A DNA stretch of 64,000 nucleotides, taken from NCBI RefSeq assembly GCF_041248615.1, contig NZ_CP158426.1. One strand, 5' to 3'. Below, piece by piece: positions 2,939 to 11,827 of the stretch. Position 1 is the first letter of the stretch; each line of letters starts with the position of its first letter. Position numbers and translations under genes: made by a program. The DNA comes from Escherichia coli. Its GTDB lineage: Bacteria; Pseudomonadota; Gammaproteobacteria; Enterobacterales; Enterobacteriaceae. The notes under the pieces are model-generated. The model searched no databases. It saw nothing but the letters and a program-made list of their open reading frames with translations, and was not told the DNA's origin.

Positions 2939-3156
2939 CACAATTAAATAAATCGAGCCCGACCAACAATTTTGATGTTAACAGCAGGATTATTGAGGGG
3001 CAATCAATGTGTTCTTCGGTAGCGATTACGGTAGTGAACGGACCTGCTGTCTGAATGGCATCGATCCGCAAGCGTATCGGCGCCATATTCTGAGCGTACT
3101 ACTGAAATGGCTAATGGCAGTAAAGAGAGACTTTACGTATATTTGCATAAAGCAGG

Positions 3157-3186
3157 ATTTTACGACTAGTCAACATTCTTTATAAT
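3157..3186 (+). promoter_or_regulatory. putative sigma70 promoter of orphan gene
   Basis: TAGTCA (3157-3162), 18-bp spacer, perfect TATAAT (3181-3186), about 55 bp upstream of ATG 3240. Confidence 0.3.
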
Positions 3187-3239
3187 TCTTCAGGTTCAGA
3201 GTATCTGACATATAGGGTTATGTATTGGGGAGACATTTA

Positions 3240-3941
3240 ATGTTTGGCCATCTGTTACGATACTTTAGTTTCTGTAAAAAAGATTTATTAGTATTTCATC
3301 CTGAATCTGATTACTCAGATAATTTACATAAAGCCTTCTCTTTTACAAAAAGGCTAGGATTTAATGAAGAATGGAATGGGGTCACAAAAAACAAAGAATA
3401 TGATTATCAGGATGTATTCAGTCATGTCTGTCTGCAGTCTGGTGTGACAGACTTTTCCGCTTCAGCAGGACAATGCTTAAAGTGGAGTCATTATTTTCAG
3501 CCATATTTTGAGAATATCCTTGAATGTCGGGTATGGGTTACCGTTGGACAACTCTGGAAACAGGAACGATTTATTTACAATCCGTCAGTTGCGGATTTTC
3601 AGCGCTGGTCTGAAAAAGGGATTCAGCCTGAAGATTTTAGACATCACTCGGGGTTTAACTTTCATGCGTGGTTGACGACGGAAAATGGTGTGATTGTGGA
3701 TGTTTCCTTTATGAGTACGTTATCGCGGCGATTACCTGAACACCTGAGTGAAGTCAGTGGAAGTGTGATTATTGGCACGCCAGAGACGGTTCTTCCTGAG
3801 TATAAATATGTTCCCATGATTGTCGGTCAGAGGATTGTTGAGAAAATAGAAAAACGCTCTTTCATTGGTTTTCTGGCGCACGACGATATTGATTTATATA
3901 CAGTACCTGCAATCTTGGTTCCGGTATGGAAAGAATGTTAA
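3240..3941 (+). CDS. hypothetical protein (233 aa), AT-rich orphan cargo gene
   Basis: ORF 3225..3941 starts at TTG; in-frame ATG at 3240 sits 6 nt after GGGGAGA. Sampled stretches are clearly AT-rich versus neighbouring core genes. No family recognised. Confidence 0.55.
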   Translation: MFGHLLRYFSFCKKDLLVFHPESDYSDNLHKAFSFTKRLGFNEEWNGVTKNKEYDYQDVFSHVCLQSGVTDFSASAGQCLKWSHYFQPYFENILECRVWVTVGQLWKQERFIYNPSVADFQRWSEKGIQPEDFRHHSGFNFHAWLTTENGVIVDVSFMSTLSRRLPEHLSEVSGSVIIGTPETVLPEYKYVPMIVGQRIVEKIEKRSFIGFLAHDDIDLYTVPAILVPVWKEC

Positions 3942-4260
3942 AGCACGGAATAACACTATGCACTTACCGCTTTCCGGAACTCAGCTTGTTACCTGAGCGG
4001 TCAACAGAGCAGTCTTTCAGTGTCTGCACTTGGTTGCCACTAAACCGGAGTCATTTATCAGAAGTATATGTTCATGGAAGGATATTGTCAGCGCCAGTGA
4101 TATAAGACGGTAATGAGGATAGCCACCCCGCATGGGTTTCCTCAACACTGGTCACTGTGACAAGCGCACCATGATCGTCTTTGTATCGCTGATTGACTTT
4201 CGATAATAGAACATCTTCTGACATAAATTTTAGTACGGTAACAATTAACTAAATTTTCAT

Positions 4261-4527
4261 GTGGTAGCACTGAATCAGGAGACTGCGTTTCCTGATGTGT
4301 GCTTCTGCAGCCGTTACCGGATACAGACTTCGATACCAGTTACTTCGACATCCGCCATGTGTCCTGGGACCCGCTATAACGAAGTTGGAGGTAATCAGTA
4401 CAGCGTTCCCGAAATGCTGTGTGGTCAGCCAGTCTCGATACGAATATCGCTGAACGATGAGTTGCGGATCTACAGTAATGAGAAACTGGTGGCCTCACAT
4501 CGCCTCTGCTCAGTGTCGTCTGGCTAG
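4261..4527 (+). pseudogene. transposase C-terminal fragment (IS21 IstA-like?)
   Basis: Short ORF with C-terminus resembling transposase tails (ELRIYSNEKLVASHRL); weak, from memory only. Confidence 0.3.
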
Positions 4528-4671
4528 CAGATAGTACCGGAACCTCACGCCCCGCTCTGGCAGCAGATCAGTCAGGTGGAACATCGACCACTGAGTGCCT
4601 ATGAGGAGCTGTTGTGATGCATGTGTCAACGACGGATGAAAGTGGCTCTTCCGCAACCTGGGTGGAGATTT

Positions 4672-6098
4672 TCATGCCAGTGGACTCATTACCCTCTGCC
4701 TGAGTAGTTCAAATCCTGCTCGACCATACATCTGGCGTTTCAGCATCTTCAGGCGATTTACATGACCTTCGACAACACCATTACTCCAGTGACTACTGAT
4801 TGCCTCACATATAGCTGCAGCATCAGCTTCCATCCCCGCCGCCACGCGCCGAAATTCTGCTGAACCGCTTTCGTGGACTCGAGTGAACCAACTGCTTAGC
4901 TGTGATTTATTTTGGGTTTTCAGAATACGGTAGAACTCGAGTGCCAGTTGCTGCGCTATTTTCAGCTCAGGTTCTTTTTCACACATCAGACTAATAAATC
5001 GGGAAGCATAATTTTCTTCATCCCTGGTTATTCTCCAGGGCATCAACCAGCGGCTTACCCGGGACACTGAAGGAAGTCTGACGGCAGTAGTAACCGGTGG
5101 GTTCCAGCCTTTACGCCATTTGGCAACCGCATCCCTGACGATGGTTTCACTGCCTGTAAATCCCCGGGCCACCATTTCCCGCCATATCCGGCTGGCGTTA
5201 TAATTACCACTTTCTCGTTGCTCTTTTAACCACTCCCTCCATGGGTCCAGAAGCCCTCGCTTTGGCGGTCGGGTTGACATTTCAGGGAATGTTCCTGAAC
5301 GCACCCAGCGACTGACTGTCACACGCGACAGGCCTGTAATACGGGATATTTCCCTGAAACTACATCCCTTGTTATGCAGGGCCATAACCTCTGTCCAACG
5401 CTGATGCCGTTTTTTGCGGGTTTGTTGTTTTAGGCGTTCCGGACGACGGAGCGATGCTGCAGGCACAGATGGTTCTGGATCAGGTGATTTCTTTGGTGAC
5501 AACTCACTGGCAACAAGACGTATCAGAGGTATATGTCTATACATCATTCGTTCAGGCGCATCGCCAATATTTTTTAGCAGATGCCATCGATCGGCCACCT
5601 GTCTGGCCTGAGGTGCACCTTCACGTGCTGCTGTCGCATAGACTCCACTGCGATCACGCGAGACAATCTGTATTTCCGGATATTTTCTGAACCAGGTCGC
5701 CAGCGTACGCTGATCACGGCCGGGAAGCAGGACGAGGGGACGGTGAGTATCAAGATTGACGATTAACGTACCGTAACGGTGGCCCCGATGCCACGCCCAC
5801 TCATCAATACCGACATGAGGCGAGCCTGACTGTTTCGTCTCCGGGGTATTGATAACCCTGCGAAGGAGAGTATCAGCACTGCAACGGAGACCCACTGCCG
5901 TTGCTGCCCGTTTCCCGGCCTCACCTCCGGCGATTAATCCCAGTTGACGTTGTAAATTTTGTAACGCCTGTGAAGACTGTTGGTGTGAACCGGCGAAGGG
6001 AGCAAGCGACTCGGCAAAAATTTTACGTGAACAAGCCGGGTTACGGCAGTACCAGTGGCGGACAGAAAATACAAGCCATAGCGTATGTCCTGAGCAGG
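4672..6098 (-). pseudogene. ISL3-family transposase, C-terminal ~475 aa, interrupted by IS2
   Basis: C-terminus carries ISL3 signature (SNGVVEGHVNRLKMLKRQMYGRAGFELLRQRV); N-proximal zinc-finger-like RHWYCRNPACSRKIF; ORF runs 12 codons into IS2 end at 6099. Confidence 0.8.
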
Positions 6099-6109
6099 TG
6101 GATTTGCCC

Positions 6110-7015
6110 CTATATTTCCAGACACCTGTTATCACTTAACCCATTACTGGCCTGCTGCCGCAGATATTCCCGTGGCGAGCGATAACCCAGTGCACTATGC
6201 GGATGCCATTCGTTATAATGCTCGAACGCCTCTGCAAGGTTCTTTGCTGCCGTTAACCCGTCTGGTTTAGGCATGATACTGATGTAGTCACGCTTTATCG
6301 TTTTCACGAAGCTCTCTGCTATGCCGTTACTCTCCGGACTCCGCACCGCCGTGTTCTTCGGTTCAAGCCCCAATATCCGGGCAAACTGCCGTGTTTCATT
6401 AGCCCGGTAGCATGAACCATTATCCGTCAGCCACTCTACTGGAGACGCCGGAAGCTCGTTGCCGAAGCGGCGTTCCACCGCTCCCAGCATGACGTCCTGT
6501 ACTGTTTCACTGTCGAAGCCGCCCGTAGTGACTGCCCAGTGCAGTGCCTCACGGTCACAGCAGTCCAGCGCGAACGTGACTCGCAGTTTTTCTCCGTTAT
6601 CACAGCGGAACTCGAACCCGTCAGAGCACCATCGTTGATTGCTTTCTTTCACGGCCACTTTGCCAGTATGTGCCCGTTTCGATGGCGGTACAGCGGTTTT
6701 TCGCTCAAGCAACAGCGCATTCTGGCGCATGATCCGGTAAACACGTTTGGCATTGATCGCAGGCGTACCATCAAGTTCGGCCTGTCTGCGAAGCAGCGCC
6801 CATACCCGACGATAACCATACGTGGGCAGCTCTCCGATAACATGGTGTATACGGAGAAGCACATCCGTATCATCTGAGTGACGGCTGCGGCGACCATCTT
6901 TCCAGTCATCGGTTCGTCTGAGAATTACGTGCAACTGCGCACGCGACACCCGGAGACAACGGCTGACTAAGCTTACTCCCCATCCCCGGGCAATAAGGGC
7001 GCGTGCGCTATCCAC
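6110..7015 (-). CDS. insD: IS2 transposase InsD (orfB)
   Basis: 301-aa [19 protein letters not shown]... matches remembered IS2 InsD. Confidence 0.9.
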
Positions 7016-7338
7016 TTTTTTGCACGCCCGTATTCAACGGCTTCTTTAAGGAGTTCATTTTCCATCGTTTTTTTGCCGAGCAGGCGCTGGAGTTCTTTAA
7101 TCTGCTTCATGGCAGCAGCAAGTTCAGAGGCAGGAACGACCTGCTCTCCTGCGGCCACAGCAGTAAGACTTCCCTCCTGGTATTGCTTGCGCCAGAGAAA
7201 TAACTGGCTGGCTGCCACACCGTGTTGCCGGGCAACAAGGGAGACCTTCATTCCCGGTTCAAAACTCTGCTGAACAATAGCGATCTTTTCCTGTGTAGTA
7301 CGCCGTCTGCGTTTCTCCGGTCCTAAGACATCAATCAT
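6973..7338 (-). CDS. insC: IS2 InsC (orfA)
   Basis: ORF 6973..7383 contains [22 protein letters not shown]...; start placed at that Met (121 aa); overlaps insD as expected for frameshift fusion. Confidence 0.85.
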
Positions 7339-7429
7339 CTGCTCTCCAATGACTAGTCTAAAAACTAGTATTAAGACTATCACTTATTTAAGTGATATTG
7401 GTTGTCTGGAGATTCATGGGGCCAGTCTA

Positions 7430-7569
7430 CCTGTGTAGTACGCCGTCTGCGTTTCTCCGGTCCTAAGACATCAATCATCTGCTCTCCAATGACTAGTCTA
7501 AAAACTAGTATTAAGACTATCACTTATTTAAGTGATATTGGTTGTCTGGAGATTCATGGGGCCAGTCTA
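7430..7569. repeat. perfect tandem duplicate of the terminal 140 bp of IS2 (IRL end plus insC 5' end)
   Basis: 7430..7569 is base-for-base identical to 7290..7429. Confidence 0.85.
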
Positions 7570-7782
7570 ATGTGTATCCGGGATGGATGTTTACCAGAAC
7601 CTTCTCTGTTCCAGTGTGTGGAGTTTTACAGAAGAGGCGACTGTATGCAACTCTTGCCCCGTAACTGTCTTTATTCGTTTCTCCACACTCTCCGGACATT
7701 GTAAATTCCAGATGTGTGGCAGTGTGTTTTTCGTAAATCGTACACAATGCATTTTTACACGGAGTTCAGCCAGTCGTATCAC
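7570..7782 (-). pseudogene. probable N-terminal remnant of the ISL3-family transposase, beyond the IS2 insertion
   Basis: Short frameshifted minus-strand ORFs (7520..7747, 7591..7782) adjacent to the IS2 junction; assignment by position and weak similarity only. Confidence 0.35.
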
Positions 7783-8036
7783 TGAGAGTTTTTTTTCTGA
7801 TTTGTACCACTCATGCAGCAGTGATAAGGAGATATTTTCTCTGTCGGGCCAGCAGGGGCGGTGCCACCTGTTTAGTTTTCTTATGTTTGGTAAAAGAGAG
7901 GCTAAAATATATACAACAGGCGCATGTAATGATTCATATTGTTAATCATTAACCAGTAAGAATTAATGTAGTGGATCGGTAATTCAGGACACCTCGAAAT
8001 CCTGTTAATGTTAAAACAGTGAAAATGGGGTGATGC

Positions 8037-8354
8037 ATGAGCAAAACTCGTCGGACTAAACGCACCTTTTCCCCGGAGTTCAGGCTCGAAGCTATCGAGC
8101 AAGTAGTTAAATACCAGCGCGATGTCAGAGAAGTCGCGCTGGCACTTGAGCTCAATCCTGACCATTTGCGTAAATGGATACGGTTGTATAAGCTGGAACT
8201 TCAGGGTATTGAGCCCGCTGGTAATGCCATACCCCTGAACAGCGAGAAATTCAGCAGCTTAAAAGCGCAGATAAAGCGCCTTGAGATGGAAAAAGAAATA
8301 CTAAAGCAGGCTGCCGTGCTGATGAGCGAAATCCCCGGCAAGCTGTCGCGCTAA
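8037..8354 (+). CDS. IS3-family transposase OrfA (105 aa)
   Basis: MSKTRRTKRTFSPEFRLEAIEQV... with helix-turn-helix and leucine-zipper-like tail typical of IS3 OrfA. Confidence 0.75.
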   Translation: MSKTRRTKRTFSPEFRLEAIEQVVKYQRDVREVALALELNPDHLRKWIRLYKLELQGIEPAGNAIPLNSEKFSSLKAQIKRLEMEKEILKQAAVLMSEIPGKLSR

Positions 8355-8455
8355 TCACACTGCTGAAAGCAAAGCGGCCAGTGCGGATTATTTGTCATTT
8401 ATTCGGTGTTCACCGTAGCGTTTATTACGCGCAGGTGAAGCGTCCTGTTAATGTA
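8355..8455 (+). pseudogene. IS3-family orfB N-terminal remnant (truncated)
   Basis: Reads ...LFGVHRSVYYAQVKRP... typical of IS3 OrfB N-terminus, then ends at the junction near 8456. Confidence 0.45.
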
Positions 8456-8519
8456 TCAGCGCCAATGATATAAGACAGTAATTAGGATTCGGACGATTTC
8501 CTGGACTGCTTTATTATGC

Positions 8520-9229
8520 CAGCCCGCATTGTTGGCGGTACATTTCAGGGATGACTGCACCCAGCGAAAATTTTATACGCCGCTCGTTATACCATCTGAT
8601 GTAAGCATCCACATGCCGCATGAATTTTTCAGGCGTGATACCCAATCATTTACGCCCATAATATATTTCAGTTTTCAGTCTGCCGAAAAAGCCTTCGCAT
8701 GCAGCATTATCAGGCGAGCATCCTTTACGGGACATTGAGCGAATAAGGCCTGCTGTATTCACTCTTTCCAGCCAGGCCAGCGATAATGCCCACCTCTGTC
8801 ACTGTGTATCACCGGTCGTTCGCCAGCATTTAACGTTTCGACAGCGTTATCCAGCATAGTGTTGACCAGTTCAGCATCGGGGCGTGTACTGAGAGACCAG
8901 CTCACAACTTTTCTGTCGAAGCAGTCCACCACCGGTGATAGCCAGACTTTTCCTGCAGGAAGCTGGAACTCCGTGATATCTGTCAGCCATTTCTGATTAG
9001 GTTGCTCCGCCTTAAAATCTCTGGCGATAAGGTTATCCGGAGAAGGTCCGATTTCTCCGCAATATGAGCTGTAGCGGCGATGACGGTTACGGCTGACGAC
9101 AAGCTGTTCCTCCACCATAAGTCTGCGTACAACCTTTTCTGATAGCCGATCCCCCTCATGCCTGAGCATCGCATGCAGGCGACGATAGCCATAACACTGG
9201 TAATTACTGTTAAATATATCTGTCAGCAT
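8520..9229 (-). pseudogene. IS3-family transposase orfB (DDE), frameshifted
   Basis: ORF 8759..9229 has DDE-region motifs (WLTDITEF, HSDRGG); downstream out-of-frame segment encodes SMSRKGCSPDNAACEGFFGRLK. Confidence 0.75.
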
Positions 9230-9337
9230 CGTACGTATCGTGGCGTATTTATCACTGGCTTTCAGTGCAGCCCGGTGATAAAAATAACTGCTACGGGCAA
9301 GGCCCAGAACATGCAGTAATTCTGTCAGGGGATATGT

Positions 9338-10041
9338 TTATCTCAGGGCATCAGTAATCTTTGTTTTTTCTCTGTTGTTCAGGTGACTGATGCTGATGCC
9401 CGGGTCTTTTTTTATTATTTCCTCCGCTTTTTTCAGAATATCCAGTTCCATCTGCCGGCGGCGTATTTCCTGATTCAGTCGGGCGACTTCCTCCCGCAAC
9501 GCATCGCGTTCTGCCTCCAGGGAAGGGGCGTTATGTTTACGCATAGTCTGGTAAGCACTGTTGCCGATAATTTCATCTTTCCATTTATACAATACCGCGC
9601 GACTGACACCAATACGCCTGGCGATTTCACTGGCTGATCCTTGTCGTGTACAGAGTACCATGACAGCCTGACGTTTGACTTCTGGTTCAAAGGACGCAAC
9701 CGGATTGGTCTTACTGGTAAATACACGTCGTCTGTCGGGGGAACGTTCATTAACCCAGCGAGCGAGCATATCGGTACAGGGATAACCCAGAGTCCTGCTG
9801 GTAAACGCCAGGCAGCAGCCGTGGTTAAGATAATGTTCAACGGCAACCTGTTTTTGCTCATCGGAGTAACGGTGCTTATGACGAATGGATTCTTTTGATC
9901 CGCCACCTGCTTCCCATGAACGGATCCAACGCCGCAGATTTCTTTTCGAAGGGTAGCCCAGTTCGCGTACGACGGGGCCAGCTTCTTACCATATTTGAAA
10001 TAAAGCTCAATGGTGCGAATTTTTTGTTCTTCAGTAAACAT
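9338..10041 (-). pseudogene. IS3-family transposase orfA, frameshifted
   Basis: MFTEEQKIRTIELYFKYGKK at 10041 then a frame shift; ORF 9338..9769 carries the helix-turn-helix and coiled-coil tail. Confidence 0.6.
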
Positions 10042-10291
10042 GTTTCATCTCCTGAGAGTCCAGGAAATCGTCCGCATCCCCTAACGGTCAAAAATCGTGG
10101 CGTTGATACAGGGGAAATCCGTAGTTTTTGATGCCAGCCATAACGTGTTTGACTATAAAGTATTACGAAAGGACTTTAATGAGCCCCTGGAATAATTCAT
10201 TAAAGTAATTTACTTCGCTATCCTTTTCCCAGTTACTCACAAAGAAAAATATTCATAAAATAATTCCCGGGCTGGCAGCCCGGGATGATTA

Positions 10292-11554
10292 CTATTTTAA
10301 TGGATTGTTAATCTTTGCATATTCAAACGGGCTGATACATTGTTCTCTGTTCGCACCCAGAAAATCTGCCCACCACTGTAGCATCAGTCGACGTTCTTCC
10401 AGATGTTCTGCTTTATGGATATATGCAGCACGTACACCATTACGCTCCTGATGGCTCATCTGACGTTCCACAGCATCGCGGGACCACAAACCTGATTCAA
10501 TCAATGCACTGCACGCCATCGCCCGGAATCCATGACCACAGACTTCCTGGGTTGTGTCATATCCCATCACCCTCAGGGCTTTATTTACAGTATTTTCACT
10601 GATCGGTTTACGCGGGTCATGTGCTCCCGTAAAGATCAGACCATTTTCACCAGCCCATGTCTGTAGTTCTGTCAGTATGGCTACAGCCTGTTTGCTGAGT
10701 GGCACAAGATGTGGTGTTCGCATCTTGGAGCCCCGGTGTGAGTATTTTACGCCTGGCAGAGGTTCGCGTTCGGCTGGAATAGTCCACATGGCATTGTCAA
10801 TATCAATTTCAGACCAGCGGGAATATCTGAGTTCACTGGAACGAATAAAAACCAGTAAATTCAGCATAACTGCCAGTCGGGTGACAGGCTGACCTTTATA
10901 ACCGTCAATACGCGACAGAAGTTCAGGCAGGCGTGAAAGATCCAGAGCAGGGCGATGCTGGCGTTTTACCGTGGTCAATGCACCAGCCATATCCAGAGCC
11001 GGGTTATATCTGATGATGCCAGACTGTACGGCATAACGCATTACAGCAGATATTCTTTGCTGCAGACGACTGGCGATTTCATAAATTTGTTTTGCTTCTG
11101 CAGCACGAACAGGGATAAGCAGGTCCGGGGTATTGAGTGTTGTGATATCCCGGTTGCCGATAAAGGGGAAAACGTGTGTCTCGAGGCTTTTGATTACTTT
11201 ATCGCTGTGTGATTGTGCCCATTGTTTATTACTGGCATGCCAGCGTCGTGCAATATGTTCAAAAGAGAGTTGTAAATCAGGGACTACTTTTTTAGCTCTT
11301 TTTTGTTCGCAAGGGTCAATCCCCTCTGAAATCAGTTTTCGGGCCTCATCCCGTTTTGTACGAGCTTCGGAGAGAGAAACTTCTGGATATACACCAAGTG
11401 CCAGAGTCTTCTCCTTACCCAGAATACGATAACGGAGACGCCAGTAACGGGAACCATTAGGATGAACCAGCAGGAACATGCCAGCCCCGTCAGTGAGTTT
11501 ATAAGCCTTGTCAGTGTGCTTTGCAGCCCGGATTTTTGCGTCAGTCAGTGCCAT
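10292..11554 (-). CDS. P4-type tyrosine integrase (420 aa)
   Basis: MALTDAKIRAAKH... N-terminus and length typical of P4/CP4-57-like integrases; about 200 bp from the tRNA-Phe 3' end, same orientation. Confidence 0.9.
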   Translation of the reverse strand: MALTDAKIRAAKHTDKAYKLTDGAGMFLLVHPNGSRYWRLRYRILGKEKTLALGVYPEVSLSEARTKRDEARKLISEGIDPCEQKRAKKVVPDLQLSFEHIARRWHASNKQWAQSHSDKVIKSLETHVFPFIGNRDITTLNTPDLLIPVRAAEAKQIYEIASRLQQRISAVMRYAVQSGIIRYNPALDMAGALTTVKRQHRPALDLSRLPELLSRIDGYKGQPVTRLAVMLNLLVFIRSSELRYSRWSEIDIDNAMWTIPAEREPLPGVKYSHRGSKMRTPHLVPLSKQAVAILTELQTWAGENGLIFTGAHDPRKPISENTVNKALRVMGYDTTQEVCGHGFRAMACSALIESGLWSRDAVERQMSHQERNGVRAAYIHKAEHLEERRLMLQWWADFLGANREQCISPFEYAKINNPLK

Positions 11555-11751: not shown

Positions 11752-11827
11752 TGGTGCCCGGACTCGGAATCGAACCAAGGACACGGGGATTTTCAATCCC
11801 CTGCTCTACCGACTGAGCTATCCGGGC
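11752..11827 (-). tRNA. pheV: tRNA-Phe (anticodon GAA)
   Basis: Reverse complement reads GCCCGGATAGCTCAGTCGGTAGAGCAGGGGATTGAAAATCCCCGTGTCCTTGGTTCGATTCCGAGTCCGGGCACCA (76 nt); pheV assigned by yqgA-speC context. Confidence 0.95.

Follow-up and report, generated by a model that had tools for sequence, protein, structure and literature searches.

Two described systems come closest to the locus that we report here. One is the insertion of IS1353 into IS1326 (PMC5640717). The other is the relationship between IS4321/IS5075 and Tn21 in which, according to the summary of Partridge and Hall 2003 given in PMC11187229, insertion takes place at one fixed position in the terminal inverted repeat of another element, in many contexts. 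Elements of the IS4321/IS5075 type have a DEDD transposase, and a seekRNA base-pairs with the conserved target (PMC11187229). The literature that we searched, which did not take in the primary IS1353 papers or ISfinder, mentions only IS1353 in IS1326 and describes no target preference for IS1353-like elements; the rule that we outline below cannot be claimed as new.

The DNA that we analysed, hereafter called the window, is a 64,000-nucleotide stretch of an Escherichia coli genome (NZ_CP158426.1). It includes a tRNA-Phe (pheV) island (tRNA at 11752-11827, integrase at 10292-11554), in a region dense with IS elements and pseudogenes. Both sites discussed below lie in this island. A sequence-only reading of the window had reported a 31-bp sequence at 4088-4118 that recurs at 8456-8486 with three mismatches, and had suggested that it may be a solo terminal fragment of an IS3-family element. 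The repeat is present at exactly these positions: 3 of the 31 nucleotides differ, and a second match with three or fewer mismatches arose in 0 of 100 dinucleotide-preserving shuffles of the window. It can be extended without gaps to 33 nt (4088-4120 against 8456-8488, 30/33 identical), and TGT lies immediately 5' of it at both sites (TGTCAG at 4086, TGTATCAG at 8452). When 220-nt stretches centred on the repeat region were aligned globally, the flanks showed no similarity beyond about 35 nt on either side. The homologous unit that the two sites share is 4086-4114 (site A) against 8452-8482 (site B). Both sites have AGGAT after the repeat, although its origin differs: it belongs to a DUF4222 gene at site A and to the end of a nested IS at site B, and the few bases common to the two sites beyond this unit are coincidental. 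Both sites also occur in related strains, where other IS elements have come or gone between them.

Both 31-mers come from an IS21-family left end (IRL), of which they form the outer tip. The idea of a solo terminal IS fragment was therefore sound, since the repeat does match an IS terminus. Indeed, the check proposed with it, local alignment of the two sites and comparison with IS ends, gave no extension of the similarity but did identify such a terminus. The two tips are different variants, one of IS21 type (site A) and one ISEc62-like and lengthened by a 2-nt insertion (site B), which means that a single recombination between copies of one element did not produce them both. Of the old deletion or recombination that had been envisaged, one part stands (the junctions come from old IS-driven rearrangements) and the other falls (recombination between copies of one element, because the variants differ). 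Both copies are non-functional scars, severed from the rest of an IS21-family element. We propose that these scars are the outer 29 nt of an IS21-family IRL, cut at the point where IS21-family ends harbour elements of the IS1353/ISKpn38 group, and we put the probability of this reading at about 0.87. The features at and around the two sites are listed in Table 1.

Table 1. Features at and around sites A and B, in window coordinates.
Feature	Coordinates	Strand	Basis
Site A, solo IS21-family IRL outer tip, 29 nt, TGTCAGCGCCAGTGATATAAGACGGTAAT	4086..4114	+	29/29 identical to IS21 IRL
DUF4222 gene, 5' part and upstream region, 11-nt internal deletion	4115..4298	-	aligned to intact genes of ECONIH1 (L043) and C012 (L042)
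istA 3' fragment and istB start, IS21-like	4304..4623	+ (as site A tip)	92% to IS21 (L010 4465-4783), 80% to ISEc62
Truncated IS3-family element, orfA and orfB start, left flank of site B	7967..8454	+	intact copies match 7967 to 8454, then diverge
Site B, IS21-family IRL outer tip, 31 nt, TGTATCAGCGCCAATGATATAAGACAGTAAT	8452..8482	+	28 identical positions to ISEc62, 27 to IS21
Nested degenerate IS3-family element (IS1353/ISKpn38 relative), 1599 bp	8483..10081	-	frameshifted transposase; PGAP IS3 family transposase pseudogene
IS21-family IRR outer tip, 29 nt, minus-strand TGTATCAACGCCACGATTTTTGACCGTTA	10082..10110	-	26 identical positions to IS21 IRR of L010

The origin of the site A tip can be read from plasmid pECO-fce. 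The tip matches positions 3504-3532 of the plasmid locus (L010), about 100 bp upstream of the istA gene of an element that PGAP names IS21; the perfect match upstream of this istA covers 32 nt, and the IS21 in question interrupts umuC with a CTAT duplication. Several matches to the repeat are annotated umuC, and we considered whether it might derive from that gene. It does not: an IS21 or a composite interrupts umuC at these places, and the repeat is the end of the IS. Plasmid umuC has been struck independently at two points 10 bp apart, by IS21 (CTAT, L010 ~3495-3504) and by an ISEc62-type composite (AAGG, L004 ~3000-3010), and IS21-family insertion may have a local hot spot there.

At nt 29, its inner side, the site A tip is fused to the interior of a DUF4222 gene, for which PGAP annotates a partial CDS at 4115..4298. 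In the window the tip is joined to GAGGATAGCCACCCCGCAT, which corresponds to GCGGATAGCCGTCCCGCAT of the DUF4222 gene, and the 11-nt deletion follows. The intact gene of strain ECONIH1 reads ...CATGCAGGGAT|GCGGATAGCCGTCCCGCATAAACACCACCCGGGTTTCC, and in strain C012 the tip is joined to GCGGATAACCGTCCCGCATAAACACC. C012 is 92.6% identical to the window over the tip/DUF4222 module, and the junction must therefore be old. No IRR partner was found for the site A tip. An istA fragment (4304-4623) does lie nearby, parted from the tip by the DUF4222 fragment and annotated by PGAP as a 'Mu transposase domain-containing protein' pseudogene. C012 does not have this second junction, so the fragment need not derive from the same IS21 copy as the tip. 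As a separate observation, the minus strand of 4063-4091 has CTGACA in the outer end of the tip and TATACT in the flank, with 10/12 consensus matches; this is a consensus match only.

The left tip at site B carries a 2-nt AT insertion after TGT. Its sequence precedes the istA gene of ISEc62 in L005, and a 41-nt match to it lies about 100 bp upstream of ISEc62 istA on plasmid p510016_80. Because the truncated IS3 fragment could equally account for the TGT at 8452-8454, the outer boundary of site B is ambiguous by 2-3 nt. On the far side of the nested element, the minus-strand terminus at 10110 (TGTATCAA) has the same AT insertion after TGT. Both tips (8452-8458 and 10104-10110) read TGTATCA, as against TGTCA. 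The same 2-nt insertion in both ends points to a distinct IS21-family variant as the lost element, rather than to random decay. Site B is an IRL tip, a nested IS that has become a pseudogene and an IRR tip, from which the istA/istB body has gone. With istAB absent and the subterminal repeats absent or displaced, the pieces at site B, like those at site A, are remnants rather than elements. Neither window site has a target duplication, and none of the 4-8 bp kind made by IS21-family elements surrounds 8452...10110. The IS21-type body at B could have been lost when each end carried a nested copy and these two copies underwent homologous recombination; alternatively, the tip-IS-tip unit may have moved as a mini-IS21, with IstA/IstB supplied in trans.

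A perfect 140-bp tandem duplication lies to the left of site B, at 7290-7569 (7290-7429 = 7430-7569), and takes in the left end of the IS2-like element found at 6110-7420. H2 and H4, the closest relatives, are 140-141 bp shorter here, and the duplication is perhaps peculiar to this strain or an artefact of assembly.

The nested element has intact homologues of 1604 bp that encode a single 510-aa IS3-family transposase and end in GGGGATGCGGACGATTTCCTGGAC. The transposase of the homologue on pB7A_99 matches NF033516 (E=7.8e-128) and the Pfam families rve, HTH_Tnp_1 and HTH_21. At the amino acid level, the transposase of the intact homologues is 61% identical to that of ISKpn38 and 52% identical to an IS3-family transposase beside IS1326. 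The gene for the latter (L013) lies between IS1326 istA and tniB, in an In2-type context; from what is established for Tn21 and from this context (IS1326 istAB, then tniB) we take the element to be IS1353. In the window copy (8483-10081), which differs from other copies by about 5%, there is a frameshift and the left terminus is degenerate (TAGGATTCGG); the terminal inverted repeats of this copy (8485-8507 and 10057-10079) are 96% complementary. A cluster look-up returned no ISfinder name for the nested element, only 'IS3 family transposase'.

The junction between an IS21-family tip and an element of this group recurs well beyond the window. In L009 and L011, a 29-nt IS21 IRL tip identical to that of site A abuts an IS1353-like end, and in L011 just 13 nt of the IS1353-like element are left. 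L008 is an otherwise intact ISEc62 with an element in its IRR, and removal of the element and 3 bp restores the ISEc62 end exactly. On pB7A_99 (L004 3010-4667), a 28-nt tip, an intact element (L004 3036-4639) and a second 28-nt tip lie inside umuC, flanked by an AAGG duplication. IRR tips stand beside the element in L007, L014 and L015. The element in L013 sits 28-29 nt from the IRL terminus of IS1326 (TGTTGAGTTGCATCTAAAATTGACCCAC), and ISKpn38 (L012) likewise sits 28-29 nt from a TGT terminus. Within the E. coli collection, about 930 genomes have a junction of the IS with an IRL tip and about 1040 with an IRR tip; the counts may overlap, and many copies are clonal.

Scanning one genome per species yielded 26 loci from Alpha-, Beta- and Gammaproteobacteria. 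Over all loci collected, TGT stands exactly 28-29 nt outside the IS end at 26 of the 53 identifiable ends; at nearly all other offsets the count is 0-3. One tip per nested insertion is the expected maximum unless both flanks are tips, and a tip is missing from roughly half of the IS ends, as it should be where an end faces inward in a nested insertion. Some elements, however, have no tip on either side examined: L006 (next to sat), L019, L026 and L030. Nested insertions are bordered by 3-bp duplications in L016, L020, L025 and L029, and IstB or IstA genes adjoin the nested IS in L020, L025 and L029. Tip-IS-tip composites are found in Paraburkholderia (L022) and in Mesorhizobium (L023), the latter with an 8-bp CCTCGATC duplication.

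The tips have in common the TGT at the terminus and, near nt 21-26, a C-rich motif, and are otherwise widely different. Across them it is the distance from the terminus that is constant, not the sequence. For several tips in other genera there is no istAB within 4 kb, and assignment of these to the IS21 family is by TGT terminus and repeat architecture only. In the Pantoea, Rahnella and Klebsiella loci, where we listed the flanking ORFs and read ten through, no istAB was found near the TGT tips.

Two further observations concern these loci. In L012, L016, L017 and L028 (Klebsiella, Pantoea, Rahnella and Paraburkholderia), tips of the TGTAG/TGTAA type lie beside ISKpn38-like elements and are preceded by a common AT-rich flank (TTTAACATAAT...ATTATGCGCAC), with no istAB within 4 kb; the host element there may have its own target preference. 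In addition, composites recur in unrelated bacteria (L004, L022, L023 and window 8452-10110) and may be mobilisable as mini-IS21 units. Two of them carry IS21-type target duplications (AAGG in L004, CCTCGATC in L023).

How might such junctions form? The nested element lies 28-29 nt from the terminal TGT, just past the first subterminal repeat, and its insertion generates a 2-3 bp target duplication. It could recognise this position through a DNA feature of IS21-family ends or through ends bound by IstA. The recurring junction suggests position-specific targeting of IS21-family ends by the whole clade. That the transposase actively chooses the target, as opposed to such insertions being selectively retained, is something we infer from static junctions, many of them clonal. 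More tentatively, and at somewhat less than even odds, the IS1353/ISKpn38 group may be made up of IS21-family parasites that insert at a fixed 28-29 nt inside either end, in either orientation and whatever the local sequence, across Alpha-, Beta- and Gammaproteobacteria, disabling the host end and giving rise to tip-IS-tip composites that may be moved by IstA/IstB. If this is true, the two 31-mers of the window are footprints of an interaction between the IS1353 group and the IS21 family.

At site A, a nested IS may formerly have sat at nt 29 of the tip and been lost by an excision or deletion anchored at its own end. This past presence is suggested because the tip ends at the nesting position. 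No base of a nested IS can be demonstrated at site A, and the position of the break is the sole argument. The intact DUF4222 gene has GGGATGCGGA (10 nt, L043 ~1466-1475) at the breakpoint, identical to nt 2-11 of an IS1353-like end, which hints at an event anchored on an IS end. The presence of GGGATGCGGA in DUF4222 (window 4115-4133) may be chance, or it may be a microhomology or pseudo-end that guided the deletion. We had also considered GAGGAT (4115-4120) as a 6-nt remnant of the nested IS, and alignment with intact DUF4222 genes ruled this out.

Could the site A tip instead have been cut at nt 29 by an unrelated deletion, whether by chance or at a fragile point, with no IS1353-like element ever nested there? 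This we regard as unlikely. It would account for the absence of any site A nucleotide that comes unambiguously from a nested IS, and for a junction partner that is plain DUF4222. Against it, the break, which the DUF4222 alignment places at tip nt 29, falls on the very nucleotide that borders the IS in L009 and L011, where the tip is identical, and in the junctions of about 930 E. coli genomes. L011, with the tip and 13 nt of the IS end followed by unrelated DNA, has the form of an intermediate, and the identity of GGGATGCGGA at the DUF4222 breakpoint to nt 2-11 of the IS end would be a further coincidence. Loss of a nested element remains our preferred account of site A.

Three other identities for the repeat fare much worse. 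The sequence-only reading suggested the solo terminal inverted repeat of the IS3-family element beside site B, a leftover of a deletion or of recombination among its copies. The repeat does adjoin that element directly at B, and the 4-6 nt after it are similar to the element's end; the IS3-like sequence noticed after the repeat is indeed the end of the nested IS at B, but at A it is the DUF4222 gene. However, other E. coli genomes hold hundreds of intact copies of the element whose match to the window starts only at 8485, where the element's own inverted repeats begin, and the IS21 IRL that precedes istA is identical to the repeat. Judged by the boundaries of intact copies, the repeat (TGTCAGCGCCA...GTAAT) is absent from both IS3-family elements adjoining site B: copies of the right-hand element start at 8485 and those of the left-hand element end at 8454, so 8455-8482 belongs to neither, and 8456-8482 has no IS3-type inverted partner. 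A partner sought at 10080-10110, on the idea that the repeat was part of the right-hand element's inverted repeat, turned out to be the IS21 IRR tip. An IS3-family terminus is thus very improbable. Even harder to credit is that the site A 31-mer is native DUF4222 coding sequence, as might be supposed from C012, where it falls within an intact 72-aa ORF and within a full DUF4222 CDS annotated by PGAP, and where the Pfam match to DUF4222 extends to residue 47, inside the tip. In ECONIH1 the intact gene keeps 97% identity as far as the junction and is unrelated beyond it (MRDGYPHPCMRPMYNF... against ...YPHYCLISLALT), both gene and protein diverging exactly at the tip boundary, and in over 1500 genomes that have DUF4222 genes the match to the window begins no earlier than 4134; the 29 nt are, after all, identical to IS21. 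Nor do we give much credence to a functional cis element of the island, such as a promoter, an RNA or a recombination site, with two copies under selection. IS21 ends supply promoter hexamers, and at site A a -35-like CTGACA points outward from the TGTCAG terminus, with TATACT 17 nt away. Promoter-like matches are, however, no commoner than in shuffles, both copies lie amid pseudogenes and IS debris, and they descend from different IS21-family variants. An Rfam scan of 3000-11000 found no matching family, and comparison with shuffles gave no above-chance promoter or terminator signal at the scars.

Scars of this kind are an ordinary feature. Those in the window help to date and order the rearrangements of the island and are otherwise of little importance. 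There is also a practical consequence for annotation: a stretch of 28-29 nt that begins with TGT beside an IS1353-like end should be labelled an IS21-family tip and not part of the flanking gene. The labels that PGAP places under tip sequence are umuC, DUF4222 or 'none'.

How do the window sites compare with known systems? The ends of IS21 and ISEc62 are their immediate source: site A is the first 29 nt of the IS21 IRL, and site B and 10082-10110 match the ISEc62/IS21 IRL and the IS21 IRR, respectively. The difference is that the outermost 29-31 nt alone survive. The window ends lack istA/istB and the subterminal repeats or have them displaced, and so cannot function as IS21 ends. In general, the 1.6 kb that a nested element places between the terminal cleavage site and the subterminal repeats should inactivate an IS21 end.

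IS1353 in IS1326 (In2, Tn21) is the closest parallel to the nested insertion. The IS3-family transposases, of about 510 aa, are 52% identical, the terminal repeats are near-identical (GGGGTGCGGAC...TTGGAC), and in both cases the element is nested in an IS21-family element, 28-29 nt from the left terminus in IS1326. Whereas IS1326 keeps istA and istB, the host elements in the window are reduced to tips of 29-31 nt, and at site A the nested IS has gone as well. The literature that we searched presents IS1353 in IS1326 as one isolated case of nesting and states no rule.

IS911, another member of the IS3 family, reportedly targets sequences that resemble its own ends (Loot, Turlan and Chandler 2004). 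It sets a precedent, in that an IS3-family transposase steers insertion beside a specific DNA feature rather than at random. The ends of the IS1353 group carry GCGGAC, which is complementary to the GTCCGC core present in several subterminal repeats of the IS21 family. The likeness goes no further than resemblance, and many target tips do not have the GTCCGC core (for example IS1326, ...TTGACCCAC).

With IS4321/IS5075-Tn21, the window sites and their relatives share a fixed position inside the terminal repeat of another element. The two systems differ in that the transposase here is a DDE enzyme of the IS3 family and in that the targets vary widely, with only the distance from the terminus constant. 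A clade of IS3-family elements that selects its position in this way would be the DDE-transposase counterpart of IS4321/IS5075-Tn21 and, if the rule is true, a natural system for asking how a transposase recognises the end or the transpososome of another element.
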